Source of the DNA: Candidatus Crickella merdequi
GTDB taxonomy: Bacteria > Bacillota > Clostridia > Peptostreptococcales > Anaerovoracaceae
Direction: 5' to 3'
Length of the DNA stretch: 64,000 nucleotides
Assembly: GCA_018064645.1 (NCBI GenBank)
Contig: JAGHUT010000064.1
Span: 3,965 to 67,964 of the forward strand
Shown here: positions 15,630-42,363 of the stretch, in pieces
Numbering within the stretch: the stretch's first letter is position 1
Layout: each line of letters opens with the position of its first letter
Made by a program: the position numbers and the translations under genes
Notes under the pieces: generated by a model
Database searches by the model: none
What the model was told of the DNA's origin: nothing
The model's input: the letters and a program-made list of their open reading frames with translations, nothing else

Positions 15630-15736
15630 GCCCAAATAAAACCCTTTTTTATTGTTTTAATGGCCTCAAATTTGCTCTAGTGTTTAAAAAGATGGTATAA
15701 TCAACTAAATATATCACTAAACAGAAAGAGGTTTTT

Positions 15737-17689: not shown

Positions 17690-17713
17690 GAAGAGCATGG
17701 AAAAAGAGAAAAA

Positions 17714-19486: not shown

Positions 19487-19501
19487 AAAAGGGTAAAGAA
19501 A

Positions 19502-24994: not shown

Positions 24995-25021
24995 AAGGAC
25001 CGGACAATCCGGTCCTTTTAT
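24995..25021 (+). terminator. Rho-independent terminator after rpsR
   Basis: Stem aaggaccgga / tccggtcctt with a caa loop and a T-run. Confidence 0.85.
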
Positions 25022-25061: not shown

Positions 25062-25090
25062 TTGCCAAGAGGTTGACTCTGTGCTAACAT
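25062..25090 (+). promoter_or_regulatory. Candidate promoter of the nif-like/hyp/hyd operon
   Basis: -35 TTGCCA (25062-25067), 17-nt spacer, extended -10 TGcTAACAT (25082-25090). Located between the rpsR terminator and the leader. Confidence 0.4.
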
Positions 25091-25125
25091 CAGTTCATCT
25101 GAGATCGAAATATCGCATTGAGGTT

Positions 25126-25210
25126 GAAGATGCCAATAGAGATAAGAGAAACGACAGGGACAACTGTCGGTATTGCGGCATCTTCCAATTGGGAAGATGT
25201 TTTTTATTTT
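25126..25210 (+). promoter_or_regulatory. Riboswitch-like leader: closing helix mutually exclusive with an intrinsic terminator
   Basis: gaagatgcc (25126-25134) pairs with ggcatcttc (25177-25185) and encloses the hairpin gacag-ggacaa-ctgtc. The same 3' strand (catcttcc, 25179-25186) pairs with ggaagatg (25192-25199), followed by ttttttatttt (25200-25210). RBS and ATG follow at 25218-25231. Confidence 0.5.
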
Positions 25211-25228
25211 ACTGAGAAGGAGACAGAT

Positions 25229-25486
25229 ATGGAAGGTTACAGAGTGGCAATTCTCGGGATCATCATCGAAGAGATGGAGTCGGTTGCAGAAGTAAATGCG
25301 GTTCTTCACGAGTTCAACGAGTACATAATCGGAAGAATGGGAATTCCATACAAAACAAGAGGAATCAACGTCATCAGCATAGCAGTAGATGCTCCATGCG
25401 ATGCGATCAATACAATGGCAGGCAAGCTGGGCAAGCTTAGCGGAGTAAGTGCGAAGGCTGTTTATTCGAAGCTTTCACATGAATAG
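25229..25486 (+). CDS. TM1266-type small ACT-like protein (family annotated as putative iron-only hydrogenase system regulator)
   Basis: 85 aa from ATG 25229 (RBS gaaggag). MEGYRVAILGIIIEE..VNAVLHEFNEYIIGRMGIPY..INTMAGKLGKLSGVSAKAVYS matches my recollection of Thermotoga TM1266. The ORF-track start at 25118 would translate through the terminator hairpin. Confidence 0.6.
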   Translation: MEGYRVAILGIIIEEMESVAEVNAVLHEFNEYIIGRMGIPYKTRGINVISIAVDAPCDAINTMAGKLGKLSGVSAKAVYSKLSHE

Positions 25487-25501: not shown

Positions 25502-26248
25502 ATGAGAAAAATCGCAATTTACGGCAAGGGTGGTATCGGCAAATCGACAATATGTTCTAATGTCGCGGCTGCTCTTGCAGAAAAAGGGCTCAAAGTCATG
25601 CAGATAGGCTGCGATCCGAAGGCGGATTCTACTTATGCTCTCAGACACGGAGAGCCGCTGGCTACAGTCCTTGATACAGTGAGAGTCAAAGGCAGCAGTT
25701 TTGACCTTGATGAGGTGGTACATGAGGGCTATGCCGGAACCATCTGTGTGGAGGCAGGAGGCCCTGTGCCGGGCGTTGGATGTGCAGGCAGGGGAATTAT
25801 CACTGCCCTGGAGAAAATCGACGAGAAGGGCGTATATGACCGATACGAGCCGGATGTGATTATATATGATGTTCTTGGAGATGTAGTCTGCGGAGGCTTT
25901 TCCATGCCGATGAGAGGCGGCTACGCAGAAGAGGTGTACATTGTAACCTCTGGTGAGAACATGGCAATTTATGCAGCTGCAAATATTGCAGTGGCAATCG
26001 ATAATTTCAAGGGCAGAGGCTATGCAAAGCTTGGCGGTCTCATCCTCAACAGAAGAGATGTGAGGAACGAAGATGCCAAAGTGAAGGAGCTTTGCGAAGA
26101 CCTTAATACATCCCTTATTGGTGACATCCATAGGAGCGAAACAGTTCTGGACGCAGAGGAGAAGAAGCAGACTGTACTGGAAGCTTTTCCAGAAAGCAAT
26201 CAGGCAGAGGCGTACAGAACGCTTGCAGAGATAATCTGGAGCAGATAG
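25502..26248 (+). CDS. NifH-like (nitrogenase iron protein family) ATPase, copy 1
   Basis: [15 protein letters not shown] Walker A. Both [4Fe-4S] ligand contexts are present ([12 protein letters not shown] and [12 protein letters not shown]). ATG 25502 follows ggag. The ORF-track start at 25493 is TTG. Confidence 0.9.
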   Translation: MRKIAIYGKGGIGKSTICSNVAAALAEKGLKVMQIGCDPKADSTYALRHGEPLATVLDTVRVKGSSFDLDEVVHEGYAGTICVEAGGPVPGVGCAGRGIITALEKIDEKGVYDRYEPDVIIYDVLGDVVCGGFSMPMRGGYAEEVYIVTSGENMAIYAAANIAVAIDNFKGRGYAKLGGLILNRRDVRNEDAKVKELCEDLNTSLIGDIHRSETVLDAEEKKQTVLEAFPESNQAEAYRTLAEIIWSR

Positions 26249-26250
26249 AA

Positions 26251-28809
26251 GTGACAGAAAGAAATATTAGAACAAGTGAATATGTGACCTTAAGAGATGG
26301 AAGTTTTCCGCTTCCTTTCGCACAGCAGCTTGAATTCAGCTCGCCGGCAAGAGGAACCTTGAATATTGTTCATACAGGCAATCTTATACCGGAAAGCCAT
26401 GAGATTTTTGTCTGTGCCAAGGGTTGCCTGCGAGGAGTAGTCCTGACAGCGGCAGAGGCCGGCACCATGGGCAGATACTCAGCACTGGAGATCAAGGAGG
26501 AGAATATTCTCAACGGTGACATGGAGACAATGATGATTGAAGGTGTTTCGGACATCATCGCCAAGCTCCCTTACAGACCGAGAGCAATTCTCTTGTATAT
26601 AAGCTGTCAGCATTTCTTTATGGCATATGACAGGGAGATGGTTTTTGAGGTGCTGAAAGACAGGTTCAGGGATATTGAGTTCGCAGACTGTTACATGATT
26701 CCGACCCTTCGCAAAAGCGGCATAACCCCGGATCAGAAGATGCGGATTCAGATGTACAGCATGCTTAAGCCAGCTGTTACAGATGAGTCGCAGATTAATC
26801 TTATGGGAAGCAATCATGCCATTGTGGACAGCTGTGAAATATATACGCTTCTTGAAAAAAGAGGCATGAGTCTCACATCAATTAATGACTGTGAATCCTT
26901 CGATGAATATCTTGATCTAGCCAGGGGCCGGCTTAACATTATATATGAGCCAATAGCTCTTATGGCGGCTGAGGATATGGAGAAGCGTCTTGGAATACCG
27001 TATGTGTATCTGCCAAATGTCTACAGAGCAGATGATATTGCAGACAATTACAGGCTTCTTGGAGAGGTTCTCGGCGAGGTGCTTGATGAAGAAGAACTGG
27101 CAAGGTCCTGCGAAAAAGCGAAGCTTGCAGTCAGGGAAACACTCGCGATGGTCGGAGATTCTCCGATTGCAGTAGACTATACTTTTGGCCCTAGGCTTCT
27201 CAATCTGGCAAGATTCCTGGCAGAAGAAGGCTTTAATGTAACGGACCTCTTCGCAGACGGATTTTTCCCCGAAGAAGAGAAGGACTGGTGCTGGCTCAAG
27301 GAGAATAGACCGGATATTATACTTCATCCTACCAGCAGAGCAGCAATGCGTTACGAGAAAGATATCAATCCAGGAGCGCTGGCACTTGGACAGAAAGCGG
27401 CCTGCTTCATGGGAACAGATAATTTCGTTAATGTCGCAGAGTGCGGAGGCTTCTTCGGCTATGACGGAATAGTGCAGATAATGAAGCTTCTGCAGGAGGC
27501 CTGCAGAGTCAGTAAGGATAGAGAGGTAATTGTTCAGAAGAAGGGAACTAAAGTCAGATCTCTTCTTGATGAGGCAGACAGTCTCTGCTGCCGTGAACAG
27601 CCAGAGAAGAAACTCGAGTCGACAGGCAATAATTATACAGCTGGACTTGTACCAACTTATTCATCCGATGAATTCGGAATCTGTTCGGCCCTGTATGAAC
27701 TTGGCGGAATGGTGGTAATGCACGATGCATCTGGATGCAACTCAACATATACAACACATGATGAGCCACGATGGTACAACCAGGAGAGCATGATATACAT
27801 CTCAGCAATCTCCGAAATGGAAGCAATTATGGGAGATGATGAGAAGCTCATCAAAGACATCTGCGATGCGGCAGAAGCATTGAAGCCTGAGTTCATAGCA
27901 ATTGTAGGAGCCCCTATTCCATACATGATAGGAACAGATTTTGATGCAATTGCCAATATCCTGGAGGAAAAGCTGGGAATTCCATGCGTAGGTTTCGATG
28001 CCAACGGAATGCAGAACTACACAAAAGGCGTTGCCATGGCAACAAGAATGCTTGTGGAGAGATTCACCGAAACGCCTGTGGAAAAAACTGTGGAAAAAAC
28101 TGTGGAAATGTCACAGACGTTCACAATTAACCTCCTTGGAGCAACTCCTCTTGATTTCGCTCTCAATGGAACTGTTGCTTCAATAAAGGAGTGGGCGAAG
28201 GAACATCAAATGGCTGTAAAGTGCAGTTTTTCAATGGATTCAAGCCTTGAAGAGATTAAAGAAGCAGCTTCAGCCGATGCAAATCTTGTTCTTACGTACG
28301 GTGGTCTGGCGGCAGCTAAACTGATGAAAAGCAAATTCGGCATACCATATACCTGTGGAGTACCATGTGGAAAACTTGGTGATAATCTTGCAAAAGAACT
28401 TCGCGGCAGCCTCTTGTCGGCGAACACCGACGAAGCAAAAGGCGCTGAAAGAATCAAAGTAGCTGTAATCGGTGAAGAGATAACAAGCCTGTCACTGGCA
28501 AGAGCTCTCGAAATTGAATACAACTTCGATGCACGAGTTCTGAGCGCAGCAGATACAGATAAGGTAATACTAAGAGAGAAGGACTATGCAGCTGAATCAG
28601 AGGATGCAATTATAAGAATCCTTGCAGAGCTGCAGCCGGCACTGGTCATTGCAGATCCGTTCTACCAGGCCATAGTGCCAAAGGAAATGGATTTCTACCC
28701 AAGACCGCACGAGGCCTTCTCGGGAAGAATATATGACGGACAGAATCAGAATCTGATCAACTGCAGTCTGAGAGAGAAGCTGTCCGGTTTGGAGAAATAC
28801 GATGCTTAA
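26251..28809 (+). CDS. Fused nitrogenase-component-1-like protein: NifD-like N-half and NifK-like C-half in one 852-aa polypeptide
   Basis: The N-half (about aa 1-430) is paralogous to 29572-30858; the shared segment is ..[14 protein letters not shown].. versus ..AAEDIAKRLEIPSI... The C-half (about aa 465-852) is paralogous to 30855-31922; the shared segment is [19 protein letters not shown] versus CDAGGCTGNVCGFDEPRWF. GTG start 2 nt after the upstream stop. Confidence 0.8.
28076..28109 (+). repeat. In-frame 12-bp tandem repeat (ctgtggaaaaaa, about 2.8 copies) encoding [10 protein letters not shown]
   Basis: Read directly: cctgtggaaaaaactgtggaaaaaactgtggaaatg. Confidence 0.9.
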
Positions 28810-29554
28810 GATAGCAGTTTACGGTAAAGGCGGAATAGGTAAATCAACAACAACAGCAAATCTCGCAGCAGCTTTTGCCAGTCTTGGCAAGAAAGTAATT
28901 CAGATTGGCTGTGATCCAAAGGCAGATTCAACAATGAACCTCCTTCACGGAAGCCCTGTTCAGTCAGTAATGGACTACATGAGAATTAATGATGATGAGC
29001 CGACAGAACTCAGTGAAATCGTCGAGGAAGGTTATGGCGGAGTGGTATGCATCGAGACAGGTGGACCTACACCGGGACTGGGATGCGCCGGCCGAGGAAT
29101 TATAACAACTTTTTCGCTTCTCGAGGACCTGGAGCTCTTCGAAACATATGAACCAGATGTTGTTCTTTACGACGTCCTTGGAGATGTAGTTTGCGGAGGC
29201 TTCGCAGCTCCTATCAGAGAGGGCTATGCAGAGAAGATTCTCATTGTTACATCAGGTGAAAAAATGGCGCTCTACGCAGCCAACAATATCTGCTCTGCGG
29301 TAAAGAATTTTGAAGACCGGGGATACGCAACGGTTCGAGGCGTAGTTCTCAACAGAAGAGCAGTAGAAAGAGAAGAAGAGAAGGTACAGGCTTTTGCAGA
29401 AGAACACGGCCTTGAGATTCTCGCAGATATTCCAAGAAGCAATGACATCATTCACTATGAGGACCAGGGAAAAACAGTTATAGAGGGAGACATTAATCTT
29501 CCTGTAAGTCAGAAGTATATTGACCTGGCAAAGAGGCTTCTTGAAGAACAATAA
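28802..29554 (+). CDS. NifH-like ATPase, copy 2
   Basis: [28 protein letters not shown] and [19 protein letters not shown] motifs. The ATG overlaps the end of the upstream gene by 8 nt. Confidence 0.9.
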
Positions 29555-29571: not shown

Positions 29572-30858
29572 ATGGACAACAAACAAGCTTATTACATCAG
29601 TGCAAAGGATCTTGCGGCGCGCGGCCTGGACAATATTCCTGACCAGCTGCAGTCCTCAAAGCACCTAATATACAGTTCGCCGGCGACTTTGTCCTTCAAC
29701 TCTCCCGGAGCGCAGGGTTTTGGTGTCAAAAGAGCAGGACTTGCTGTTCCAGGATCTGTAATGCTTCTTGTAGCTCCCGGCTGCTGCGGGCGTAATACCA
29801 CTATGCTGGCAGAGCTTGGAGACTATGCAGACAGATTCTACTATCTGCTCCAGGATGATACAGATATCATTACAGGTCGCCATCTGAACAGAATCCCGGA
29901 GGCGGTCAGGGAAGTTGTAGAGTTTCATAACCCTAAGCCAAGCTGCGTAATGATATGCATAACCTGCGTAGATGCACTTCTTGGAACAGATATGGACAGA
30001 GTCTGCCGCAAAGCATCAGCCGTTGCGGGCGTTCCGGTTCTTCCCTGCTACATGTATGCACTTACAAGGGAAGGCAGAGTGCCACCAATGACAGCTGTAA
30101 GAAAAACAGTCTATGCACTTCTTGAGAAGCGGAAGAAGAAGTCAACAACAGTTAATATTCTTGGACAGTTTGCTCCATACATGGATAACTGCGAGCTGTA
30201 TGACATTCTTCACAATCTGGGAGTAAAGAAGATTAACGAAATATCAAGATGTGCCGATTTTGAGGAATACATGGGAATGGCAGAAGCGAATTTTAACCTC
30301 GTGCTTAACCCTGAGACAAGACTTGCTGCAGAGGATATAGCGAAGCGCCTGGAGATTCCGTCAATAGAGTTAACAAGGCAGTACAGACTCGACAAGATTC
30401 ATAAGCAGTACCAGCTTCTCGGCGGAGCCCTCGGTGTAAATATTGACGACAGCAGGTGGATGAAAGAGACGGAAGAGTATATTGACGGCTTCAGGGAGAG
30501 ACACCCAGACCTGGAATTTGCCATTGGAGAGTGTCTCAATGCAGACTCTTTTGAGCTCGCCCTTGCACTTATAGGCTACGGATACAAGGTCAACGAAATT
30601 TACGGAACAGTGTCCGGTGAGAATTTCCCTTACATCCGGCAGCTTGCAAAGGTCAGCCCTGAGACAAGAATATACACTAATCTGGAGCCTACAATGCTGT
30701 ACTACGACTGCAGCGAGTGTAAGGCGGATATAACAATTGGAAAGGATGCAGAGTACTATCATCCTGATGCGCCTAATGTGCCATGGAACAGAGAAGTTCA
30801 GCCATTTGGCTACGCAGGTCTCAGAACTCTGCTTGAGGAAATAGAGGAAGCTATATGA
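29572..30858 (+). CDS. NifD/NifE-like nitrogenase-component-1-type protein (stand-alone)
   Basis: 428 aa. Cys motifs LVAPGCCGR, ICITCVDALLGTDMD and VLPCYMY. By-eye similarity to A. vinelandii NifD around NLV....(K/R)(Y/L)(G/E)IP. Confidence 0.75.
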   Translation: MDNKQAYYISAKDLAARGLDNIPDQLQSSKHLIYSSPATLSFNSPGAQGFGVKRAGLAVPGSVMLLVAPGCCGRNTTMLAELGDYADRFYYLLQDDTDIITGRHLNRIPEAVREVVEFHNPKPSCVMICITCVDALLGTDMDRVCRKASAVAGVPVLPCYMYALTREGRVPPMTAVRKTVYALLEKRKKKSTTVNILGQFAPYMDNCELYDILHNLGVKKINEISRCADFEEYMGMAEANFNLVLNPETRLAAEDIAKRLEIPSIELTRQYRLDKIHKQYQLLGGALGVNIDDSRWMKETEEYIDGFRERHPDLEFAIGECLNADSFELALALIGYGYKVNEIYGTVSGENFPYIRQLAKVSPETRIYTNLEPTMLYYDCSECKADITIGKDAEYYHPDAPNVPWNREVQPFGYAGLRTLLEEIEEAI

Positions 30859-31922
30859 AAGGTTTACTCAAAGTACTGTCGCCATTCGCACCGGACCAGT
30901 CAGGCGCAGCGGCAGTATTCTACGACATGGGATGCATAACAGTAATATGCGATGCAGGAGGATGTACAGGTAATGTGTGCGGCTTCGATGAGCCAAGATG
31001 GTTCAGGAATGCCAAGCCGATTTTCAGTGCAGGTCTTCGTGACATGGATGCCATTCTCGGACGAGATGACAGACTTGTAGACAAGCTGAGACTGGTTGCA
31101 GAGAAGACAGATGCAGATTTCGCTGCGATTATCGGAACCCCGGTTCCAGCAGTAATCGCGACGGATTTTCGCGCACTGAAGAGACTGGCTGAGAAGCGCT
31201 GCGGAATGCCGGTCGTAACCTGCGAATGTACAGGAACAAGACTGTATGATATTGGAGAAGAAGAGGCATATATGCAGCTGGTAAAAACTTTTGCAGATAC
31301 TTCTGCAGAGGCTTCCGGCAAATCGGGAATACTGGGTGTTCTTGGTGTTACTCCCCTCAATATATCCAGCATTGATGGAGATGAACTGATCCGTCAGCAT
31401 TATAAGAGTCAGGGCTATGATGAGGTTTACTGCTACGGCATGGGTGCCGGCCTTGATGAACTGAAGCTGGCCGGCTGTGCAGAGAAGAACATTGTAATTG
31501 CTCCTTCGGGTCTTAAGGCTGCACGATATCTTGAGAAGAAATTCGGAACGCCATATGAGCTGCACTACCCGCTTATGCCTGTCAATGTTGCAGAAGCAAT
31601 CAAAGGCATTGAGAATGCCAGAGTGTGCATCATTCACCAGCAGATAGCTGCAGAGGCTGTAAGGCAGCAGCTAGAGCAGAAAGGTTGTGATGTGACAGTT
31701 GCATCTTTCTTCGAAATGAAGAAGGACCTTAGAAGAGCGCAGGATGTTGCTCTCGAAACAGAAGAAGATTATCAGAAGCTCATCGAAGAAGGCGGCTTCG
31801 ATTATGTAATTGCAGACCAGCTCTTCAGAAGAGCCGTAGCTGCAGACTGCTATAAAGAGTGGATACCTATGACACATTTCGCGGTATCCGGCAAGCTTGA
31901 GGAGGCTCAATGCGCACTGTAA
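30855..31922 (+). CDS. NifK/NifN-like nitrogenase-component-1-type protein (stand-alone)
   Basis: 355 aa with an ATGA overlap to the upstream gene. VICDAGGCTGNVCGFDEPRWF and IIGTPVPAVIATDF segments are paralogous to the C-half of 26251-28809. Confidence 0.7.
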   Translation: MKGLLKVLSPFAPDQSGAAAVFYDMGCITVICDAGGCTGNVCGFDEPRWFRNAKPIFSAGLRDMDAILGRDDRLVDKLRLVAEKTDADFAAIIGTPVPAVIATDFRALKRLAEKRCGMPVVTCECTGTRLYDIGEEEAYMQLVKTFADTSAEASGKSGILGVLGVTPLNISSIDGDELIRQHYKSQGYDEVYCYGMGAGLDELKLAGCAEKNIVIAPSGLKAARYLEKKFGTPYELHYPLMPVNVAEAIKGIENARVCIIHQQIAAEAVRQQLEQKGCDVTVASFFEMKKDLRRAQDVALETEEDYQKLIEEGGFDYVIADQLFRRAVAADCYKEWIPMTHFAVSGKLEEAQCAL

Positions 31923-34240
31923 GAATCTGTGTTTATGGAATAGTGCAGGGAGTAGGCTTCAGACCTTTTGTCAGCAGACTGGCAGACAGAATCGGCATTA
32001 AAGGAAGTGTGGCAAACAGAGGATCGTATGTGGAGATTTTTGCTGCCGGCGAAGAAGAACAGCTTGATTTATTCAAGTCGCTTCTCCGGCAGGAAGCACC
32101 TGAACGTTCGGCAATACTCAAGGTTACAGAGAGAACTGTTGAGCCTGGCGGATACGAAGACTTCCAGATAATAGAAAGTGAGCACGAAGAGGGAGATATC
32201 TTTGTTTCGCCTGATATTGCCACATGCCCAAAATGCAGAAGAGAGCTTTACGACCCTAACAACCGTCGATACATGCATCCTTTTATCAACTGTACGGCAT
32301 GCGGCCCAAGGCTTACCATTCTCGATGCAATGCCGTACGACCGTCAGAGAACAAGTATGAAGGCTTTTCCGATGTGTCCCGAATGTGAGTACGAATACAC
32401 GCATGCAGAGACGCGCAGGTATGATGCTCAGCCGGTATGCTGCAATGACTGCGGCCCGGAGGTGTATATTATCGGAAGTGAAATCAGCGGCAGAGCTGCC
32501 ATCACTTATGCGAGACAGGCGATCATTGATGGTAAGATTATTGCCATCAAGGGAATTGGCGGATTCCATCTCTGCTGCGATGCGACTAACGAAGAAGCAG
32601 TTGCAAGACTGAGAACTCTCAAGCGCAGACCGGCGAAGCCTTTTGCAGTAATGGCAAGAGACCTTGAGACTGTAGAGCGAGAATGCCAGCTTCCGGGGCA
32701 GAACATCAGGGATATTCTCGATGGACATCAGAAGCCGATAATTCTTCTTAAGCGTAAAAACGACAGCAGGCTGGCTCCATCAGTAGCTCCCGACAATCCA
32801 AAGATTGGAATGATGCTGCCTTACGCACCGGTACAGATGCTGCTTTTTGACTACAACGACGGCCTTGAGATGACAACAGACTGTTTCGTTATGACAAGCG
32901 GCAATGTCAGCGGAGCGCCAATCTGCAGAACAGACGAGGACGCAATTAAGGAGCTGTCTGGCTTCTGCGATATAATGCTTTCGCATAACAGAACCATAAG
33001 GCTTCGCGCTGATGATTCCGTAATGGATATCTACCGCGGTGAGCCATACATGATAAGGCGTTCAAGAGGCTATGCGCCACTGCCTGTGATGACAGAGCAG
33101 AATGTCAGAGGAAGCGTGCTTGCTGTAGGAGGAGAGCTTAAGAACACCTTCTGCATCGGCAAGGATCAGCTTCTCTACGAGTCGCCATATGTTGGTGATA
33201 TGGAGGATCTGCGCACAGTGCAGGCTCTTGAGGAATCGATAAAAAGAATGGCGGAGCTGCTCGAGACGTCACCGACAATTGTGGCGTGCGATCTTCATCC
33301 GAAGTACAATACTGGTTTTGTGGCTGAGAGACAGGGGCTTCCTGTTATGAAACTTCAGCATCATTATGCTCATATTCTGTCATGTATGGCGGAGAACGAT
33401 TACAGTGATAGAGTAATAGGACTTTCTCTTGATGGAACTGGCTACGGAACAGACGGAACTATCTGGGGCGGAGAACTGCTCTCCTGCGACCTTGATGGCT
33501 TCGAAAGAATTGGCTGTATAGAAGCTTTCGACCAGGTCGGCGGTGATGCTTCAGCAAAAGAAGGCTGGAGAATAGCGGCTTCAATGATCAACTCCATATA
33601 CGGAGAGGAAGCTTCGGAGGTAGTGACGAAGCTCGGCCTTTGCGATGAGAACGCCAGAGCTCTTATTGCAAGAATGGCTGAAAGAGGTATAAACACCGTA
33701 AAGTCCACAAGCGCGGGAAGACTCTTTGACGCTGTCAGCGCAATTCTGGGTGTTCGAAAGAGCTCAAGCTTCGAAGGCGAAGCTGCAACAACTCTTATGT
33801 TCAGAGCCCAGGCCTTCGCAGAGACAGCTGAAGCACTGCCGGAGGTACCTTCGTTCTGCGGAATAGCCCTTGAGGATTTCTGCAATATAAGAACGACGGA
33901 GCTGGTTCGATACCTTATCGAAGAGAAACTCAAAATTCAGGATGAAGAGGGCAATCTGAGCATAGAAGAACAGGGAAGACTAGCCTATGTTTTTCATGAA
34001 GCCTTTGCCGAGATGTGCGCAGAAGCAGCAATCTGGGCATGCAGCAGAGAAGAAATAGCGACTGCAGCGCTCTCCGGAGGAGTTTTCCAGAACACACTTC
34101 TCCTGGAAGGAGTTGAATCGCGACTTGAGAATAATGGAATCAAAGTATTGAGGCATCATATGATTCCGCCTAATGATGGAGGCATTGCCCTCGGTCAGGC
34201 GGCAGCAGCGATGCATAAGATAAACAGGGAGGACAAGTGA
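31910..34240 (+). CDS. hypF: Carbamoyltransferase HypF
   Basis: 776 aa. Acylphosphatase domain (VYGIVQGVGFRPFV). Two Zn-finger pairs (CPKCRRELYDPNNRRYMHPFINCTACGPR; CPECEYEYTHAETRRYDAQPVCCNDCGP). YrdC-like and Kae1-like C-terminal domains. RBS gaggagg. Confidence 0.92.
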   Translation: MRTVRICVYGIVQGVGFRPFVSRLADRIGIKGSVANRGSYVEIFAAGEEEQLDLFKSLLRQEAPERSAILKVTERTVEPGGYEDFQIIESEHEEGDIFVSPDIATCPKCRRELYDPNNRRYMHPFINCTACGPRLTILDAMPYDRQRTSMKAFPMCPECEYEYTHAETRRYDAQPVCCNDCGPEVYIIGSEISGRAAITYARQAIIDGKIIAIKGIGGFHLCCDATNEEAVARLRTLKRRPAKPFAVMARDLETVERECQLPGQNIRDILDGHQKPIILLKRKNDSRLAPSVAPDNPKIGMMLPYAPVQMLLFDYNDGLEMTTDCFVMTSGNVSGAPICRTDEDAIKELSGFCDIMLSHNRTIRLRADDSVMDIYRGEPYMIRRSRGYAPLPVMTEQNVRGSVLAVGGELKNTFCIGKDQLLYESPYVGDMEDLRTVQALEESIKRMAELLETSPTIVACDLHPKYNTGFVAERQGLPVMKLQHHYAHILSCMAENDYSDRVIGLSLDGTGYGTDGTIWGGELLSCDLDGFERIGCIEAFDQVGGDASAKEGWRIAASMINSIYGEEASEVVTKLGLCDENARALIARMAERGINTVKSTSAGRLFDAVSAILGVRKSSSFEGEAATTLMFRAQAFAETAEALPEVPSFCGIALEDFCNIRTTELVRYLIEEKLKIQDEEGNLSIEEQGRLAYVFHEAFAEMCAEAAIWACSREEIATAALSGGVFQNTLLLEGVESRLENNGIKVLRHHMIPPNDGGIALGQAAAAMHKINREDK

Positions 34241-34241
34241 T

Positions 34242-34448
34242 ATGTGCGTAGGATTAGCGGCTAAAGTAGTAGGAATCAAGGATGGCGTTGCTGTTGTTGA
34301 TGCATCAGGCGCAAAGAGAGAGGTGGCTGCAGAGCTCATCGAGGAGCTTGAGCCAGGCGATTTCGTAATGGTTCATGCAGGCATTGCCATCGCAAAGATT
34401 ACTGCAGATGATACAGAAGAGACAGATGAACTGATGGAGATGCTTTAA
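34242..34448 (+). CDS. hypC: HypC/HybG/HupF-family hydrogenase maturation chaperone
   Basis: 68 aa with the N-terminal MCVG motif (essential Cys2) and the typical DFVMVHAGIAI segment. Confidence 0.85.
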   Translation: MCVGLAAKVVGIKDGVAVVDASGAKREVAAELIEELEPGDFVMVHAGIAIAKITADDTEETDELMEML

Positions 34449-35491
34449 TGGAAGAGAAGAAACTTACAGCACGTGAGATCATCGAGAGCTACGATGGTCC
34501 GAAGCTTAGAATAATGGAGGTGTGCGGAACGCATACGCATGAGATTTTTCGCCTTGGAATCAGAAGTCTGCTCCCAGAGAATGTTGAGCTGATTTCCGGA
34601 CCGGGCTGCCCTGTTTGCGTAACGCCTGTAGGCTTCATTGATATGGCCCTTCAGCTGGCCCTCGAGAAGGAGTGCGTAATCTGTACTTTTGGAGACCTTA
34701 TCAGAGTTCCGGGTTCAGAGATGAGTCTTGCTGACGCGAGAGCTAAGGGTGCAGTTGTAAAAATCGTATATACTGCTACAGACGCTCTCGACTATGCGAA
34801 GGAGAATCCTGATAAGCAGGTGGTTTTCCTGTCTGTCGGTTTCGAGACAACAACTCCTGGAAGCTGTCTGGCAGTTAAGAAGGCTAAGGAAGAAGGGGTT
34901 CAGAACTTCTCGATTCTTACTGCCAACAAGACAATGCCTAATGCATATCAGGCACTTAAGGGAAGCGCAGATGCGTTCCTCTATCCAGGACATGTTAACG
35001 CAATCACAGGAGAGGATGACTGCCGCAAGCTGGCCGAAGAAGGAGTATCAGGCGTAATCGCCGGTTTTACCGCCAAGGAACTTCTGACAGCCCTTGCAGT
35101 GACAATAAGAAAATGCCAGCAGGGCGAGCCTTTCTTCGTTAACTGCTATCCAAGGGTAGTTACTGAAAAGGGAAACATCCCTTCAAAGAAAATTATCGAA
35201 GAGATTATGGAGCCATGCGATTCAATCTGGAGAGGCCTTGGAAACATTTCGATGTCAGGTCTGAAGCTTAGAGAAGAGTACGCCGCGTTCGATGCACAGC
35301 GGAAGTTCGACATTCCTGAGACAGAGGGAACACCTAATCCTGGATGCCGCTGCGGTGAGGTTCTTCAGGGCAAGTGCAAGCCTGCAGATTGCCCTCTGTT
35401 CGGCAAGGTATGCACACCGCTTCATCCGGTAGGTGCATGTATGGTATCAAATGAAGGTTCCTGCTCTGCGTACTATCAGTACCAGATGTAG
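34448..35491 (+). CDS. hypD: Hydrogenase maturation Fe-S protein HypD
   Basis: CGTHTHEI, GPGCPVCVTP, GFETT and PGHVNAITG motifs, plus the C-terminal Cys cluster CRCGEVLQGKCKPADCPLFGKVCTPLHPVGACMVSNEGSC. Confidence 0.92.
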   Translation: MEEKKLTAREIIESYDGPKLRIMEVCGTHTHEIFRLGIRSLLPENVELISGPGCPVCVTPVGFIDMALQLALEKECVICTFGDLIRVPGSEMSLADARAKGAVVKIVYTATDALDYAKENPDKQVVFLSVGFETTTPGSCLAVKKAKEEGVQNFSILTANKTMPNAYQALKGSADAFLYPGHVNAITGEDDCRKLAEEGVSGVIAGFTAKELLTALAVTIRKCQQGEPFFVNCYPRVVTEKGNIPSKKIIEEIMEPCDSIWRGLGNISMSGLKLREEYAAFDAQRKFDIPETEGTPNPGCRCGEVLQGKCKPADCPLFGKVCTPLHPVGACMVSNEGSCSAYYQYQM

Positions 35492-35511
35492 ACGATATAG
35501 GAGAGAGTATT

Positions 35512-36516
35512 ATGAGTGAATATGTTAAGCTGGCCCACGGTGCCGGCGGCAAGCAGACATCAGAGCTGATTGAAAAAGTCTTCAAGGCGCATTTTGCTAA
35601 TCCTGAGTTTACTGCTGACGATGCAGCAGTACTGAATGTTGGAGATGGAAGAATCGCTATGTCGACAGATGGTTTTATCGTGTCGCCATTCGAGTTCCCG
35701 GGCGGCAACATCGGCAAACTTTCTATTTGCGGAACGGTAAATGACCTGGCATGCATGGGAGCACAGCCTCTTTATATGACCTGTGCTTTCGTAATAGAGG
35801 AAGGTTTTCCTCTTGAGAAGCTGGAGATGATTGCAGCTTCAATGGAGAAGACCGCTGCAGAGGTTGGTGTTAAGATTGTTGCCGGCGATACTAAGGTTGC
35901 AGGCAAGGGACAGGTAGACAATGTCTTCATAACAACAACAGGCGTAGGCAGGCTGACTGAGGGCTTTGCTACTTCAGGAGCTTTTGCCAAGCCTGGTGAC
36001 AAAATCATCGTTACAGGTGATGTAGGCCGTCATGGCTGCACAATCCTTCTTGAGAGAGAAGATCTGGGAATTGAGGCAGATATCAAGAGTGACTGTGCGC
36101 CTCTCTGGAACACAGTTAAAGCGATGATGGATGCAACTTCAGACATCCACGTAATAAGAGATGCTACAAGAGGCGGTGTTGGTACTGTCCTTTATGAAAT
36201 TGCGGCTGAGAGCAATGTTGGTGTAAGGCTTGAAGCTACACAGGTTCCAGTTGATCCAGCTGTTGCAGGTGTATGTGGAATGCTGGGCCTTGACCCGCTC
36301 TATCTTGCCAACGAGGGAACAATGGTTGTTATTGCTCCAGCAGAGTCTGCAGACAAGGTGCTCGAGGCACTTCGCGGCGACAAGTATGGACAGAAGGCGG
36401 CTGTTATTGGCGAGATTACAGATGTAATGCCGGGAAGCGTAGTAGTAAGAACAGAGATTGGAACAGAGACACTTCTTCCACAGCCAGGAGGAGAGCTCCT
36501 TCCAAGAATCTGCTAA
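35512..36516 (+). CDS. hypE: Carbamoyl dehydratase HypE
   Basis: 334 aa with a PurM-like fold, an N-terminal LAHGAGGK segment and the invariant C-terminal PRIC motif. Confidence 0.92.
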   Translation: MSEYVKLAHGAGGKQTSELIEKVFKAHFANPEFTADDAAVLNVGDGRIAMSTDGFIVSPFEFPGGNIGKLSICGTVNDLACMGAQPLYMTCAFVIEEGFPLEKLEMIAASMEKTAAEVGVKIVAGDTKVAGKGQVDNVFITTTGVGRLTEGFATSGAFAKPGDKIIVTGDVGRHGCTILLEREDLGIEADIKSDCAPLWNTVKAMMDATSDIHVIRDATRGGVGTVLYEIAAESNVGVRLEATQVPVDPAVAGVCGMLGLDPLYLANEGTMVVIAPAESADKVLEALRGDKYGQKAAVIGEITDVMPGSVVVRTEIGTETLLPQPGGELLPRIC

Positions 36517-36526: not shown

Positions 36527-37582
36527 ATGACTGATTTATATAAGCTTGTTGACAAGCTGGAAGAGGAGAAAGAACTTTCCCTTGAGGAATGGACAAGGCT
36601 CATCGAAGGGCAGTCCTCTGAGATAAGTGAATATGTTTTTTCCAAGGCACGCAAGGCACGCGAACCCTTTTACGGCCACGAAGTGTATGTGCGAGGTCTT
36701 ATCGAGATAAGTAACATCTGCAGAAATGACTGCATCTACTGCGGTATTCGCTGCAGCAATGTCAAAGTGAATCGATACAGACTGACGAAGGAGGAGATCC
36801 TTTCCTGCTGCAGATCCGGCTGGGAAATGGGCTTCAGGACTTTTGTCATGCAGGGCGGCGAGGATCCATATTACACCGACGAGGTGCTTTGCGATATTAT
36901 CGCTGCGATTCGCGAGGAGTTCCCGGAGTGTGCAATAACCCTTTCTGTTGGAGAGCGCTCTAAAGAGAGCTATCGCAAACTTAAGGAGGCGGGTGCAGAG
37001 CGTTACCTTCTGAGGCACGAGACGGCAAATGAAGAGCACTATAGAATGCTGCATCCAGAGAACCTGAGTCTTGCTGTCCGCAAAGAGTGCCTTTTCAATC
37101 TGCGCGAGCTGGGCTACCAGGTGGGAGCAGGGTTCATGGTTGGTGCACCATATCAGACGGCGAGGCATCTTGCGGAGGATATGATTTTCCTTAAAGAGCT
37201 TAATCCTGCTATGGTTGGAATCGGACCATTCATTCCGCATCATGATACGCCTTTTGCAGATATGAAGGCAGGCACCCTTGAGCAGACAATATACCTGCTC
37301 GGGCTCATAAGACTGATGCTTCCAAAAGTTCTTCTTCCAGCGACAACAGCTCTTGGAACAAGTGATCCTCTGGGCCGCGAGAAGGGAATGGAGGCAGGTG
37401 CCAATGTAGTAATGCCGAATCTTTCACCGACAGAAGTCCGCAAGGACTACCTGCTGTACGACAACAAAATCTGCGTGAACGAAGAGGCCGCCGAGAACCT
37501 CAGGAGTCTGAAGGCTCGTATGGAGGCTATCGGATACATGGTTGTATGCGACCGCGGCGATTCAAAGAATATGGAGAACTAA
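36527..37582 (+). CDS. hydE: [FeFe]-hydrogenase H-cluster radical-SAM maturase HydE
   Basis: Radical-SAM CRNDCIYCGIR motif in a BioB-like fold, with the HydE-typical segments MQGGEDPYY and AMVGIGPFIPHHDTPF. ATG 36527 avoids overlap with hypE; the ORF-track start is 36458. Confidence 0.85.
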   Translation: MTDLYKLVDKLEEEKELSLEEWTRLIEGQSSEISEYVFSKARKAREPFYGHEVYVRGLIEISNICRNDCIYCGIRCSNVKVNRYRLTKEEILSCCRSGWEMGFRTFVMQGGEDPYYTDEVLCDIIAAIREEFPECAITLSVGERSKESYRKLKEAGAERYLLRHETANEEHYRMLHPENLSLAVRKECLFNLRELGYQVGAGFMVGAPYQTARHLAEDMIFLKELNPAMVGIGPFIPHHDTPFADMKAGTLEQTIYLLGLIRLMLPKVLLPATTALGTSDPLGREKGMEAGANVVMPNLSPTEVRKDYLLYDNKICVNEEAAENLRSLKARMEAIGYMVVCDRGDSKNMEN

Positions 37583-38785
37583 ATGAGTATGAACAACACG
37601 CCAAGTGGCGAAAGAATACATATCGGATTATTCGGCAAGCGCAACGCCGGCAAATCGAGCCTCGTCAATGCTCTGACAGGACAGAGCCTTGCCATCGTTT
37701 CGGATGTGCTGGGAACAACAACGGATCCTGTGCTCAAGGCAATGGAGCTTCTGCCGCTCGGTCCGGTTGTAATGATAGATACACCGGGCCTCGATGACGA
37801 AGGTGAGCTGGGGGAGCTGCGTATTCGTAAGGCGTATCAGATGCTGAACAAGTCGGATATCGCGCTTCTCGTAGTTGATGCTGCCTGCGGAATGACTGCT
37901 GAGGATAATGCAATTCTTGAGAGAATCCTCGGCAAAAATCTTCCTTATGTCGTAGTATTCAACAAGTGCGATGCTATCGATGAAGAAAGACGCTTCGCAT
38001 TGTCGGAAGAGCTGGGTGAGAAGAAACATATTTTTGTAAGCGCAGCCGACAGAGAGGGAATATATGAACTTAAAGAACTCATAGGTCACCTGATCCCTTC
38101 CGAATCGGAGAGGGTTCTGATTAGAGATATAATTGACCCATCCGACATAATCGTTCTTGTTGTACCTATTGATAAGGCGGCGCCTAAGGGAAGGCTTATC
38201 CTGCCGCAGCAGATGGTTATCAGAGATATTCTTGATGCAGATGCTGTTGCAGTAGTTGCCAAGGAGGATGAGCTGTCATCTGTACTTGCCAGAATCGGCG
38301 AAAAACCGAAACTGGTAGTAACAGATAGTCAGGTTTTCGGCAGAGTGTCGAAGGATACTCCAGCGGATATCTATCTTACGTCTTTTTCCATCCTGATGGC
38401 TCGTTATAAAGGCGACCTGGAGCTGGTTGTTGAGGGAGCACATCAGCTTGACCAGCTTGACGATGGGGACACAATTCTCATCGCAGAGGGATGCACTCAT
38501 CACAGACAGTGCGGCGACATCGGAACAGAGAAACTGCCGGCATGGATTCTTAAGCATAGCGGCAAGAATGTAAAGTTCGAGTTCGTAAGCGGAACGGAAT
38601 TCCCTGACGATCTTAGTAAATACAGACTGATCGTTCACTGCGGCGCATGCACCCTCAACGAGAAGGAGATGCAGTATCGCCAGAAGTGCGCCGTTGACGC
38701 AGGAATTCCAATTACAAATTATGGAACAGCAATCGCACATATGAATGGAATTCTCAAGAGAAGTCTGGAGATTTTCTGCAAATAG
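37583..38785 (+). CDS. hydF: [FeFe]-hydrogenase maturation GTPase/scaffold HydF
   Basis: GTPase P-loop GKRNAGKSSLVNALTG and DTPG. C-terminal cluster motif EGCTHH...VHCGACTLN (CxHx(n)HCxxC). Confidence 0.9.
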   Translation: MSMNNTPSGERIHIGLFGKRNAGKSSLVNALTGQSLAIVSDVLGTTTDPVLKAMELLPLGPVVMIDTPGLDDEGELGELRIRKAYQMLNKSDIALLVVDAACGMTAEDNAILERILGKNLPYVVVFNKCDAIDEERRFALSEELGEKKHIFVSAADREGIYELKELIGHLIPSESERVLIRDIIDPSDIIVLVVPIDKAAPKGRLILPQQMVIRDILDADAVAVVAKEDELSSVLARIGEKPKLVVTDSQVFGRVSKDTPADIYLTSFSILMARYKGDLELVVEGAHQLDQLDDGDTILIAEGCTHHRQCGDIGTEKLPAWILKHSGKNVKFEFVSGTEFPDDLSKYRLIVHCGACTLNEKEMQYRQKCAVDAGIPITNYGTAIAHMNGILKRSLEIFCK

Positions 38786-38851: not shown

Positions 38852-39526
38852 TTAGAGAATCTCTTCCTCCATCTTGCATGTCCAGCCCATATCCCAGAAC
38901 ATGTACTCGTACTGAGTGCATGCGTACACGATGTGCTTGAGGTGCTGATACTGCTCCTCGCTGCAGCCCTCGCTGTAACGGTCGAACATGTCAATCATGA
39001 GGTCGTTAGCTGAACGGTACTCATCTCCCATATACTGGTTAATCCAGAGGCCGTAGAACTCCTGCTCCTTAGCGCCAGGGAATGTCTCAAGATAATCTCC
39101 GATGAGTTTGTATGTCCATGAGCAGGCAAGTACAGCAGCCATAATTGCATCCATACCCTCTTTCTGAGCGATGGAAATCATATAGTTGGTATATGACTCT
39201 GTTACGATGCTAGGCTCTGCAGCAGCAAGCTCCTCGTTGGTGAGACCAAGTCTCTTGAGGTACGTCTTGTGAATTGCATTCTCAACATCAAGAGTTGCAG
39301 TGATAAGACCTGCAAAAAGTCTCTGGTCAACTTCGCTCTGTGCTTTGATAACACCCATTGCGAACACCTTTGAGTACTGCATAAGATAGAGGTGATCCTG
39401 TGTGATGTAGAACTTGAAGTTCTCCTTAGGAAGAGTTCCATCAGCCATTCCCTGTACGAACGGATGAGTGTTATTCTTCTCCCAGTAAGCAATCATGTCA
39501 TTGTAAAGACGCTCGGAGTTTTTCAT
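38852..39526 (-). CDS. tenA: Aminopyrimidine aminohydrolase / thiaminase II
   Basis: 224 aa. ..HPFVQGMADGTLPKENFKFYITQDHLYL.. is typical TenA. Last gene of the THI-box-controlled yko operon. Confidence 0.85.
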   Translation of the reverse strand: MKNSERLYNDMIAYWEKNNTHPFVQGMADGTLPKENFKFYITQDHLYLMQYSKVFAMGVIKAQSEVDQRLFAGLITATLDVENAIHKTYLKRLGLTNEELAAAEPSIVTESYTNYMISIAQKEGMDAIMAAVLACSWTYKLIGDYLETFPGAKEQEFYGLWINQYMGDEYRSANDLMIDMFDRYSEGCSEEQYQHLKHIVYACTQYEYMFWDMGWTCKMEEEIL

Positions 39527-39546
39527 GATACAAATCCTTTCTTAAT

Positions 39547-40257
39547 TTATTTAAAAATAATTATAAACGCTGTCATAAGCACCAGTGATGCTACTGCTAA
39601 TACTATATCAGAAGTTCGGACTGGTGTCTCTATAGAATAAGTTCTTGGTCCGTCGCCATCAAAGCCTTTAGACTCCATAGCCATGGCAACATTCTCCGAC
39701 CATCGGATTCCGTTAACAAGAGTGTTGAAGAGTGGTCCGAAAGGAATTACTCCTGTGCGCTTGCCCCTTACCGCATAAGCCAGATTAACCTCATCCCATT
39801 CCCTCGAAAGGGTCGGAACGAGATGTAGAGCGGCAAGTATTCCATAAGCGAACTTAGGCTTAAGATGGAACTGATGCATTGTTGACATGACAAAAATCTT
39901 GTTCTTTGTTGTCAGACCGAATAGTATTCCCATGCTTGCATAACTGAGAATTCTTGTTCCCAGAAGAAGCGCTGTATCGAAGGAGGCGATTTCATAGGCT
40001 GTCTTGCTTGCCGCATCGAGATCTGCAGAAGCAAGATTCGAAATGAAAATCAGTCCGCCAAGGAACAGCAATGGCATATAAAGGCCGATCATCACTTTAA
40101 TACTGCATCTTGACAGCAGAGTGAGGCAGAGCAGGCAGCTTACGATAACAGCACAGTTGATCTGCCATGTTCCGCCAATGGCCATCATTATACAGCAGAT
40201 AATAATAGTAACAGCCTTGACTGCCGGATTGAAATTGTCATAAAGAGGACGTCTCAT
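39547..40257 (-). CDS. ykoC: ECF-type transporter transmembrane (T) component, YkoC-like
   Basis: 236-aa membrane protein of the CbiQ/EcfT type. Its start overlaps the stop of the upstream ATPase gene. Confidence 0.65.
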   Translation of the reverse strand: MRRPLYDNFNPAVKAVTIIICCIMMAIGGTWQINCAVIVSCLLCLTLLSRCSIKVMIGLYMPLLFLGGLIFISNLASADLDAASKTAYEIASFDTALLLGTRILSYASMGILFGLTTKNKIFVMSTMHQFHLKPKFAYGILAALHLVPTLSREWDEVNLAYAVRGKRTGVIPFGPLFNTLVNGIRWSENVAMAMESKGFDGDGPRTYSIETPVRTSDIVLAVASLVLMTAFIIIFK

Positions 40258-41786: not shown

Positions 41787-42363
41787 TACCAGCTGCCTTC
41801 ATGCCAAGAGCATAACCGCGAAGCACACCAGCCTTGGCAAGACCGTCAGCGATAATCTTTGCTACAAATGCAGTGAAGATAATTGAGCTGATTACACGGC
41901 AGATAATCATGATAACGTTCATCTGGAAGCTGTATGCTGAGTAACCATAGAAGAAGTACTCGCTTACATAGCTTACAAGAGCACAGGTTACTGAGCTGAG
42001 AATCATTGTTGCTGAGTTGAACTTCTTGTATCCTGTTGCGATGAAGCCAAGCTCTGCGCCGAAGCCCTGAATGAATCCGTTAACAAGTGTCATAGGTCCG
42101 AACATTCCGCCCATCATCATTTCGATTGAAGCAGCAAGCATCTCGGCAACTGTGCCGACACCCTTCTTCTGGATGATGTAAGCCGCAAAGGTTGCAGCCA
42201 TGAACCAGAGACCATAGATAAGCTGATATCCGAGAGGCGCATAGCCGAACGGTGTAAGAGCCGCTGTAAGAGCAACTCCAATATAGTTAGCTGCCATGAA
42301 TACAAATGCGAAAAGCACACCGCAAATTGCAATCATAAGAATGTCTTTAAGTTTCCATTTCAT
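41773..42363 (-). CDS. ykoE: HMP/thiamine-precursor substrate-capture membrane component, YkoE-like
   Basis: 196-aa membrane protein. MKWKLKDILMIAI...GLWFMAATFAAYIIQKKG resembles B. subtilis YkoE (from memory). Lies directly downstream of a TPP riboswitch. Confidence 0.65.
   Translation of the reverse strand: MKWKLKDILMIAICGVLFAFVFMAANYIGVALTAALTPFGYAPLGYQLIYGLWFMAATFAAYIIQKKGVGTVAEMLAASIEMMMGGMFGPMTLVNGFIQGFGAELGFIATGYKKFNSATMILSSVTCALVSYVSEYFFYGYSAYSFQMNVIMIICRVISSIIFTAFVAKIIADGLAKAGVLRGYALGMKAAGIDEE

Follow-up and report, generated by a model that had tools for sequence, protein, structure and literature searches.

What are four genes of the [NiFe] hydrogenase maturation pathway doing in an operon of nitrogenase-like proteins? 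The question is raised by a 64,000-nt stretch of Candidatus Crickella merdequi DNA (contig JAGHUT010000064.1, positions 3,965-67,964 of the forward strand; hereafter the window), in which hypF, hypC, hypD and hypE follow directly upon a set of nitrogenase-like (NFL) genes. A preliminary description of the window had pointed to this arrangement, to the lack of nickel-insertion genes beside it, and to a possible functional link between the two gene sets. The observation itself is confirmed: the four hyp genes lie in a nitrogenase-like operon. As for its meaning, we lean, at slightly better than even chances, towards hypFCDE being the cofactor-biosynthesis arm of a conserved NFL cluster, and not an orphaned [NiFe] maturation kit.

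Hyp genes within a nitrogenase-like operon

We judged family identity by the curated (equivalog) cut-offs of NCBIfam together with Pfam domains. Counts of motif invariance come from aligned related loci (65-68 Hyp sequences, 64 sequences of the first NifH-like protein, and 18 of HydF). The hyp genes of the window are as follows.

31910..34240, + strand: HypF carbamoyltransferase, 776 amino acids (aa); TIGR00143, 738 bits against a cut-off of 466
34242..34448, + strand: HypC-family chaperone, 68 aa; TIGR00074, 61.3 against a cut-off of 48
34448..35491, + strand: HypD Fe-S scaffold, 347 aa; TIGR00075, 409.7 against a cut-off of 192.8
35512..36516, + strand: HypE, 334 aa; TIGR02124, 425.5 against a cut-off of 251.6

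The set at 31910-36516 is therefore intact, as the preliminary description had it: the open reading frames (ORFs) lie at these positions, all four score above their cut-offs, and their motifs are kept. HypF has all of its domains (acylphosphatase, two Zn-finger, YrdC and Kae1-like). HypC, which can be aligned to the T. kodakarensis structure 2Z1C, retains Cys2 and the histidine of the VHAG motif (His45), both of which are present in 66 of 66 sequences, while Pro6 of 2Z1C is replaced by Ala in the window protein; across related loci, the HypC N-termini read MCVGL(A/S/P)AKVV. HypD aligns over its full length to T. kodakarensis HypD (2Z1D, E=5e-87) and carries the CGTHTH, GPGCPVC and FETT motifs along with the C-terminal Cys cluster, with motif residues that are invariant or nearly invariant in 68 HypD sequences. 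Its best 120 database matches all share at least 71% identity with it. HypE ends in LLPRIC, the PRIC terminus, and the terminal Cys is found in 64 of 65 sequences. Taken over 65-68 loci, the catalytic residues of the Hyp proteins are invariant or nearly so.

These genes are part of a run of closely packed + strand genes that starts after ssb and rpsR and ends at convergent thiamine-salvage genes. The remaining members of the run are listed here.

25229..25486, + strand: TM1266-like small protein ('putative Fe-only hydrogenase system regulator'); PF21699, E=1.5e-30
25502..26248, + strand: NifH-like ATPase 1 (NifH1), the Fe protein of the E/N-like module; PF00142, E=1.2e-88, start at ATG 25502
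26251..28809, + strand: fused NifE-like::NifN-like protein, 852 aa, with two Oxidored_nitro domains
28802..29554, + strand: NifH-like ATPase 2 (NifH2), the Fe protein of the D/K module; PF00142, E=6.8e-93
29572..30858, + strand: NifD-like subunit; PF00148
30855..31922, + strand: NifK-like subunit; PF00148, overlapping hypF by 13 nt
36527..37582, + strand: HydE radical-SAM (S-adenosylmethionine) maturase; TIGR03956, 574 bits, above its cut-off, start revised to ATG 36527
37583..38785, + strand: HydF GTPase scaffold; TIGR03918, 567 bits, above its cut-off

The hypF ATG at 31910 stands behind a GAGGAGG ribosome-binding site (RBS), and as the NifK-like stop falls at 31922, hypF does begin 13 nt inside the NifK-like gene, as had been described. 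Further along, hypC and hypD overlap by 1 nt. The downstream side is different, in that an apparent 59-nt overlap of hypE and hydE proved to be an artefact of a TTG start at 36458. In that longer call, the match to the HydE family model starts only at residue 30, which fits ATG 36527, 10 nt past the hypE stop, so that hypE and hydE are packed but do not overlap. The Cys and His residues C304, H306, H352, C353 and C356 of HydF are invariant in 18 of 18 sequences. For the TM1266-like gene, the likely start is ATG 25229 (RBS GAGAAGGAG upstream), not TTG 25118, and its homologues have 87-91 aa.

The window lacks what would ordinarily accompany a Hyp set. In Pfam scans of each ORF of at least 100 aa outside the cluster, none came out as HypA, HypB, an endopeptidase, or a [NiFe] subunit, whether large or small, in agreement with the preliminary description, and none as HydG either. 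A CobW/COG0523 GTPase at 62088-63233 was considered as a HypB and rejected, its CobW_C domain fitting a COG0523-type metallochaperone instead. The only hydrogenase in the window is of the [FeFe] type, again as had been described (44965-46407, - strand, 480 aa), with the SSCCP, PCTAKK and MACDGGC motifs of its H-cluster intact. This enzyme has two ferredoxin-type domains; its sequence similarity to the solved enzymes of group A is distant (best E=2.4e-29), and it may be a member of group B. A 169-aa ORF at 44487-44996, which overlaps its gene, has no Pfam match.

The proteins encoded upstream of hypF belong to the NFL superfamily, as is seen from their Oxidored_nitro subunits and from NifH-type ATPases with a P-loop and two cluster cysteines; in NifH1, the P-loop and both cysteines are invariant in 64 of 64 sequences. 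The four large subunits and both ATPases score far under all Nif/Vnf/Anf/DPOR/Cfb equivalog cut-offs. Thus, the NifD-like protein reaches 22.7 bits against a nifD cut-off of 653.6, and NifH2, which falls under every NCBIfam equivalog cut-off, reaches 311 against 394 for nifH and 304 against 402 for CfbC (NF033200). A true nitrogenase was rejected on these scores and on the lack of NifB, as was CfbCD of F430 biosynthesis, on the NF033200 score and on TIGR03282 (33.8 against 268). Within the window, the E-like and D-like sequences (25% identity, E=7e-31), the N-like and K-like sequences (29% identity, E=7e-51), and NifH1 and NifH2 (52% identity) are mutually closest, which points to a duplicated pair of modules, as in NifDK and NifEN. 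By this analogy, the E-like::N-like protein, a paralogue of the D/K pair, is presumed to serve as a cofactor scaffold. Its two parts are fused in the window and in loci L008, L017, L019 and L065; most loci have one gene for each part.

An AlphaFold model of the NifD-like protein (mean predicted local distance difference test, pLDDT, of 85) gives Foldseek template modelling (TM) scores of 0.6-0.69 to NifK, NifE, NifD, MarD and ChlN at 12-21% identity. The best sequence matches among solved structures are NifE for the D-like protein (E=1e-9) and the methylthio-alkane reductase beta chain 9D9U for the K-like protein (E=1e-7). Several cysteine and histidine residues are invariant: C71, C72, C129, C132 and C145 in the D-like protein (C159 nearly so), C37 and C42 in the K-like protein, C55, C59, C119 and H121 in the E-like part, and C56, H51, H63 and H380 in the N-like part. 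The stretch around D-like C132 aligns with the matching cysteine-containing segment of NifE; alignments to solved NifD and NifE span residues 94-265 and do not resolve the counterparts of NifD Cys275 and His442. The most conserved stretch of the D-like protein is residues 31-55 (29662-29736), HLIYSSPATLSFNSPGAQGFGVKRAGL, in which 19 of 25 residues are invariant among 24 aligned sequences that have 61-100% overall identity to the window protein. Over residues 35-48, inside this stretch, the AlphaFold pLDDT drops below 50, as would be expected of a loop that becomes ordered only in a complex or around a cofactor.

The cluster in other genomes

To place the window in context, a one-genome-per-species collection was scanned with two peptide motifs specific to the NifD-like protein, giving at least 580 confirmed loci. 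The best 80 of these, together with seven metagenome loci, were annotated against the window proteins, making 87 loci (designated by L-numbers). The NifD-like family itself comprises at least 2,541 database proteins at E<=1e-10.

The conserved core consists of the TM1266-like gene, NifH1, NifE/N-like, NifH2, NifD-like, NifK-like, HypF, HypC, HypD and HypE. The upstream coupling of the hyp genes that had been noted for the window recurs throughout: hypF lies right after the NifK-like gene in 74 of the 75 loci with at least 1.7 kb past the D-like gene, with a median gap of -4 nt, and the complete hypF/hypC/hypD/hypE set is present in 65 of the 66 loci with room for it, the exception running off its contig. 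A second NifH and an E-like/N-like pair are always near the D/K-Hyp module. The two modules occur in either order, E/N first in 45 loci and D/K-Hyp first in 32, and are always together, while the genes that flank the cluster are not conserved. In one locus only (L045, a 3,986-bp contig), NifH1 and the E-like gene come after the D-like gene, where the K-like gene and hypF would be expected; this could reflect either a true variant or faulty assembly. In one lineage, a NUDIX hydrolase gene is found between hypD and hypE (L005, 15929-16438; L006, 12873-13382).

In two loci, the K-like and HypF proteins are joined in a single ORF, at L063 6048-9503 from an Oscillospiraceae metagenome-assembled genome (MAG; 1151 aa) and at L078 11296-14757 from a Lachnospiraceae MAG (1153 aa). 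Because the linkers differ, there are no ambiguous bases, and the genomes are of different families, these fusions are taken to be independent. None was found among the best 150 of the 50%-identity representatives, and NifK-like::HypF fusions are thus rare.

Within 10 kb of the cluster in the 87 loci, no HypA, HypB, large-subunit, protease, NifB or HydG family recurs. In the same range, the TM1266-like gene is found in 42 loci, HydF in 22, and HydE in 6, so that the downstream coupling to hydE, which the preliminary description had put on a par with the upstream one, is tight in the window but weaker overall. HydG is found in 0 of 87 loci, as judged from the absence of any low-identity radical-SAM match to HydE within 10 kb.

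The carriers include both acetogens and gut bacteria. Named carriers are Clostridium ljungdahlii, C. ragsdalei, C. carboxidivorans, C. drakei, C. luticellarii, Anaerostipes spp. and Candidatus Anaerobutyricum spp. In gut metagenomes, the HypD clusters are large, with 7,530 (Dorea sp.), 3,343 (Roseburia), 2,946 (Blautia obeum) and 2,296 (Blautia sp.) sequences. The Roseburia, B. obeum and Dorea contexts all show this core, there of 11 genes, between unrelated flanks, and neither hydE nor hydF is near it.

These two groups of carriers differ in their hydrogenases. Clostridial acetogens each have one group 1a [NiFe] hydrogenase, distant from the hyp set, and C. ljungdahlii, C. autoethanogenum, C. 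ragsdalei, C. coskatii and strain AWRP have hypCDEF without hypA or hypB, whereas C. drakei has hypAB beside the hydrogenase, a single hypCDEF set, and HydG (PMC9431212). The hyp set is NFL-linked in C. ragsdalei, C. ljungdahlii and C. drakei (L046, L055 and L071, respectively). In C. carboxidivorans, a second hypCDE lies beside the [NiFe] genes and hypAB, and the other set holds the sole hypF (PMC9431212); judging by locus-tag position, this hypFCDE set would be NFL locus L061, which suggests two specialised hyp sets in this species. The 2022 acetogen survey that describes these genomes lists the hyp genes as [NiFe] maturases and leaves their neighbours unremarked (PMC9431212). Among gut bacteria, Dorea longicatena has [FeFe] hydrogenases of groups A2 and B, two NifH-like matches and no [NiFe] enzyme, and Anaerobutyricum hallii and one Mediterraneibacter isolate follow the same pattern (Welsh et al., 2025). 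R. intestinalis, B. wexlerae and A. caccae isolates have matured [FeFe] enzymes and no NifH-like matches, and gut group 1 [NiFe] enzymes are mostly those of Enterobacteriaceae, Veillonella, Parabacteroides and Akkermansia (Welsh et al., 2025).

The preliminary description held that a conventional [NiFe] operon lacking its own hypCDEF, if present elsewhere in the genome, would make the hyp genes its ordinary maturases. Such an operon does exist in C. ljungdahlii, C. ragsdalei and C. drakei, whereas D. longicatena and A. hallii list no [NiFe] hydrogenase. As the Hyp-NFL linkage persists both with and without a [NiFe] enzyme, finding such an operon does not discriminate between the two possibilities.

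A proposed cofactor role for the Hyp proteins and its alternatives

The hypFCDE genes are the sole cofactor-biosynthesis genes beside the NFL genes, with no NifB-like gene in the neighbourhoods, and known Group IV NFL systems are usually accompanied by a NifB homologue, which makes a carbide cluster. In the mechanism that we propose, NifH2 and the D-like/K-like proteins would form the enzyme, and NifH1 and the E-like/N-like proteins the scaffold, in analogy to NifDK and NifEN. HypF and HypE would convert carbamoyl phosphate to a thiocyanate on the C-terminal cysteine of HypE, and HypC-HypD would assemble an iron unit ligated by cyanide (CN) and carbon monoxide (CO). This unit would then be delivered to cysteine ligands of the NFL proteins, not to a hydrogenase large subunit, and the product would be an Fe-S-based cofactor with diatomic ligands. 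The NifH-like ATPases would provide low-potential electrons for both assembly and turnover, and in loci that have HydE and HydF next to the cluster, these two may modify the CN/CO-iron unit or act as its carriers. A [NiFe] hydrogenase, where one is present, as in the clostridial acetogens, would probably be served by the NFL-linked Hyp set too. More specifically, we tentatively suggest, at somewhat short of an even chance, that the D/K (and E/N) proteins carry a hitherto unknown organometallic cofactor, in which an Fe-S cluster is combined with Fe-CN/CO made by HypCDEF, with HydE/HydF as an option, in replacement of NifB or HydG.

This proposal builds on what was observed: the identities of the genes and their intact motifs, a synteny that is both conserved and permuted, the gene fusions, the co-divergence, and the wide distribution of the cluster. 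The functional link between the Hyp and Nif-like genes that the preliminary description suspected is strongly supported by synteny, by permutation of the modules, by the fusions and by some carriers for which published tables list no [NiFe] enzyme; its suggestion that the D/K proteins or HydF receive Fe(CN)2CO concerns the identity of the acceptor, which we infer. Several points weigh against the proposal. Conserved synteny can reflect co-regulation, not physical hand-over. D-like pairwise distances correlate with those of HypF (r=0.87), HypE (0.84) and HypD (0.79), and no more tightly with those of the D-like protein's own partners (K-like, 0.84; E-like, 0.89), but without a neutral control this establishes only that the genes are inherited together. 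The RxCGxC and DPCxxC motifs of [NiFe] large subunits are missing from the D-like and K-like proteins of the window. In five acetogens (C. ljungdahlii, C. autoethanogenum, C. ragsdalei, C. coskatii and C. drakei), the lone hypCDEF set occurs together with a group 1a [NiFe] enzyme encoded elsewhere, and could accordingly be taken for the ordinary maturases of that enzyme. For Dorea and Anaerobutyricum, the absence of a [NiFe] enzyme comes from one published DIAMOND screen and a genus-level match of isolate to locus, and the screen of the source genome for [NiFe] genes covers the 64-kb window, so that a distant [NiFe] hydrogenase is possible. Finally, the acceptor, the cofactor chemistry, the reaction of the NFL system, and the presence of CN and CO on its proteins are all things that we infer.

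If the hyp genes are ordinary [NiFe] maturases, then a conventional [NiFe] hydrogenase would lie outside the window, and the Nif-like genes would be merely co-located or co-transcribed. The Hyp proteins are canonical in all sequence tests, the acetogens with the cluster have their distant group 1a enzyme and no other complete hypCDEF (PMC9431212), and some Lachnospiraceae (e.g., Eisenbergiella) carry a group 4e [NiFe] enzyme, all of which fits. We nonetheless consider this explanation decidedly unlikely, as it leaves unexplained the position of hypF after the K-like gene in both gene orders, the K-like::HypF fusions, the fact that the cluster is found in taxa with isolates for which no [NiFe] enzyme is listed, and the fact that hypA, hypB and a protease are never near it. 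The separate hypCDE beside the [NiFe] genes of C. carboxidivorans also argues against it.

The cluster might instead be, as a whole, a hydrogenase-maturation machine, with the NFL proteins acting as ATP-driven scaffolds or reductases and the product going into an [FeFe] or other hydrogenase, for example via HydF. A role of this kind was suggested in one line by Dos Santos et al. (2012; PMC3464626), and it accords with the TM1266-like, HydF and HydE genes that recur near the cluster, as well as with the window, where hydE and hydF come right after hypE and an intact [FeFe] hydrogenase is 6 kb off; with HydG never adjacent, the Hyp proteins could replace it as the source of CN and CO. However, many gut Firmicutes with [FeFe] enzymes, R. 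intestinalis, B. wexlerae and A. caccae among them, have no NifH-like matches in the tables of Welsh et al., nor does Bacteroides with the same hydrogenase groups, and the cluster is therefore not generally required for [FeFe] maturation. Moreover, hydE and hydF are not near the minimal cluster of Roseburia, B. obeum and Dorea, C. drakei holds HydG alongside the cluster, and two full paralogous H/D/K-type modules resemble an enzyme and its scaffold, not an accessory factor, which makes a maturation machine unlikely in our estimate. It is also conceivable that Hyp feeds a substrate to an NFL enzyme (an enzyme-bound thiocyanate, cyanide or carbamoyl), or that the cluster makes a cyanide or isonitrile metabolite. 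Nitrogenases reduce cyanide and CO, and it is HypF, not HypC, that is fused to the K-like protein, which would put carbamoyl and cyanide chemistry beside an NFL protein. Against this, HypC and HypD are conserved and linked as tightly as HypE and HypF, arguing for an iron-bound product, there are no conserved transporter or tailoring genes near, and ATP would be wasted without evident benefit; we regard a substrate role as very improbable. The reading of hypFCDE as a cofactor-biosynthesis arm thus remains the one that we favour.

Leader RNAs, surroundings and comparison with known systems

The cluster is preceded by structured leader RNAs of two kinds, which depend on the module that comes first.

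25091..25211, + strand: conserved 5' leader before the TM1266-like gene, with a hairpin and a terminator-like hairpin
L005 9105-9192, L153 4169-4271, L155 4076-4176, and about 22 further loci: leader before NifH2

In the window, 250 nt separate the rpsR terminator (24996-25020) from the start of the TM1266-like gene, and a promoter-like site is located at 25062-25090. The hairpin at 25096-25132 is rod-like, with two tandem G·A internal loops (CAUCU-GA-GAUC-GA-AAU...AUU-GA-GGUU-GA-AGAUG), and a terminator-like hairpin with its U-run comes next, at 25177-25211. In the first hairpin, the 3' strand, GAAGAUGC, is identical to the 3' arm of the terminator, a layout of terminator and antiterminator that, from its sequence, makes the leader a candidate attenuator or riboswitch. 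The motif is found upstream of the TM1266-like gene in 16 related loci, where 95% of cells pair as against 23-55% when the partners are slid, and two pairs of the hairpin show a compensatory change. Longer calls of the TM1266-like gene (TTG or ATG, at 25118 or 25130) cross this leader and are probably wrong.

In loci with the D/K-Hyp module first, a different conserved leader stands before NifH2, arranged as P1-CUGA-P2-AA-P3-GA-P2'-GAAU-P1' with a terminator and having the consensus CUCUGACRGYAAGG...CCGARCRGGAAUAG. Its covariation is clear and includes eight compensatory pairs, with a score of 0.252 compared to 0.157±0.021 for shuffled alignments, a value that 0 of 500 shuffles reach. A variant of this leader is carried by the Clostridium acetogens (e.g., L055, at about 9079). 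Neither leader matches an Rfam 15 family at the gathering or E-value threshold. Of two scans of metagenomes for leader patterns, the first gave 0 matches and the second 65, one of them genuine (L115, in the same gene context); the other 64 were rejected as chance matches within coding sequence. The leaders of L083 (labelled Barnesiella intestinihominis) and L076 (labelled Flexilinea sp.) are nearly identical to those of Clostridiales/Oscillospiraceae MAG loci L067 and L070, and these two are probably mis-binned contigs rather than cases of cross-phylum transfer. The two terminator-coupled leaders provide a way to find the ligand by which the cluster is controlled.

Genes for thiamine salvage flank the cluster in the window. 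A tenA gene and an ECF-type (energy-coupling factor) transporter are encoded on the minus strand right after hydF (38852-42363), and a thiamine pyrophosphate (TPP) riboswitch at 53104-53210 precedes a thiW-thiM-thiE-thiD operon (53351-56159); ECF and thiamine transporter genes are also near the cluster in B. obeum (L155 and L156). Upstream, at 8700-20800, five large secreted proteins with CWB2 repeats, which bind the cell wall, follow in a row, including papain-like proteases and a GH25 muramidase, a run typical of clostridial S-layer-associated loci. The GC content of this region is 0.37-0.41, as compared to 0.46-0.50 in the cluster. Within it, at 14837-15576, two overlapping ORFs with HTH_21 and rve integrase domains look like a frameshifted IS3-family transposase.

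Little has been written on this cluster. Dos Santos et al. (2012; PMC3464626) noted 'NifHEN-like' genes with hydrogenase maturation proteins in Coprococcus catus GD/7 and, in the same sentence, suggested a role in metallocluster assembly. This is almost certainly the same cluster, although their account differs from ours in having no census, module split, Hyp/Hyd distinction, fusions, leaders, or question of [NiFe] carriers. A full-text literature search found nothing on the cluster beyond that sentence; the cluster genes go unmentioned in a lactate transcriptome study of C. catus and A. soehngenii, and a 2026 review of NFL systems mentions neither Hyp nor Hyd, describes several clades as uncharacterised, and finds gene context of little help. 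The cluster is a widespread, essentially unstudied NFL variant in which Hyp proteins would replace NifB, and it may make a new metal cofactor. Should the Hyp proteins act on behalf of the NFL proteins, the cyanation and carbonylation machinery of [NiFe] hydrogenases would be joined to the nitrogenase superfamily, a link not described before; one of the uncharacterised clades of the review would gain a cofactor route, suggesting a non-carbide cofactor with diatomic ligands; and the intact hyp genes of many Clostridia without [NiFe] hydrogenases would be explained. An organometallic cofactor would, in turn, add a further class of CO/CN-ligated iron enzymes to the three hydrogenase types, one that is driven by an ATP-dependent Fe protein and that sits in some highly abundant Lachnospiraceae of the human gut as well as in industrial acetogens. 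With the cluster common in Roseburia, Blautia and Dorea, its reaction may matter for gut redox or H2 metabolism, and acetogens such as C. ljungdahlii and C. autoethanogenum are genetically tractable.

How does the cluster compare with systems that are already known? In the HydEFG system of [FeFe] maturation, HydG is the normal source of CO and CN. The window shares with that system HydE and HydF above their equivalog cut-offs and a TM1266-like protein at the head of the operon; in contrast, HydG was not found in the window or in the 87 neighbourhoods, and HydE and HydF belong to a minority of clusters. MarBHDK, CfbCD, DPOR/COR, IsrHDK and Group VI Nfl likewise combine an ATP-dependent NifH-like reductase with a NifD/K-like catalytic protein, but none of these has been reported with Hyp or Hyd genes. 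The HypABCDEF pathway of [NiFe] maturation, as known from E. coli and T. kodakarensis, has the same full-length HypF, HypC, HypD and HypE, with equivalog scores and catalytic motifs in common. It differs in that here HypA, HypB, the endopeptidase and the hydrogenase subunits are missing from the window, with no such families recurring within 10 kb in the 87 loci, HypC is short (68-69 aa) and often has Ala or Ser in place of Pro6, and the hyp genes are translationally coupled to nitrogenase-like genes, HypF sometimes being fused to one of them. The NifHDK/NifEN/NifB system, lastly, resembles the cluster in its two paralogous component-1-type pairs with NifH ATPases and in its component-1 fold (TM scores of 0.6-0.69), and the region of D-like C132 can be aligned to the cluster cysteine of NifE/NifD, while identity to solved members is 12-21% and scores are far under the Nif/Vnf/Anf cut-offs. 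In contrast to nitrogenase, each module here has a NifH of its own, the D-like protein has additional cysteines (C72, C129 and C145, which are invariant, and C159, which is nearly so), and hypFCDE stand in the place of NifB.

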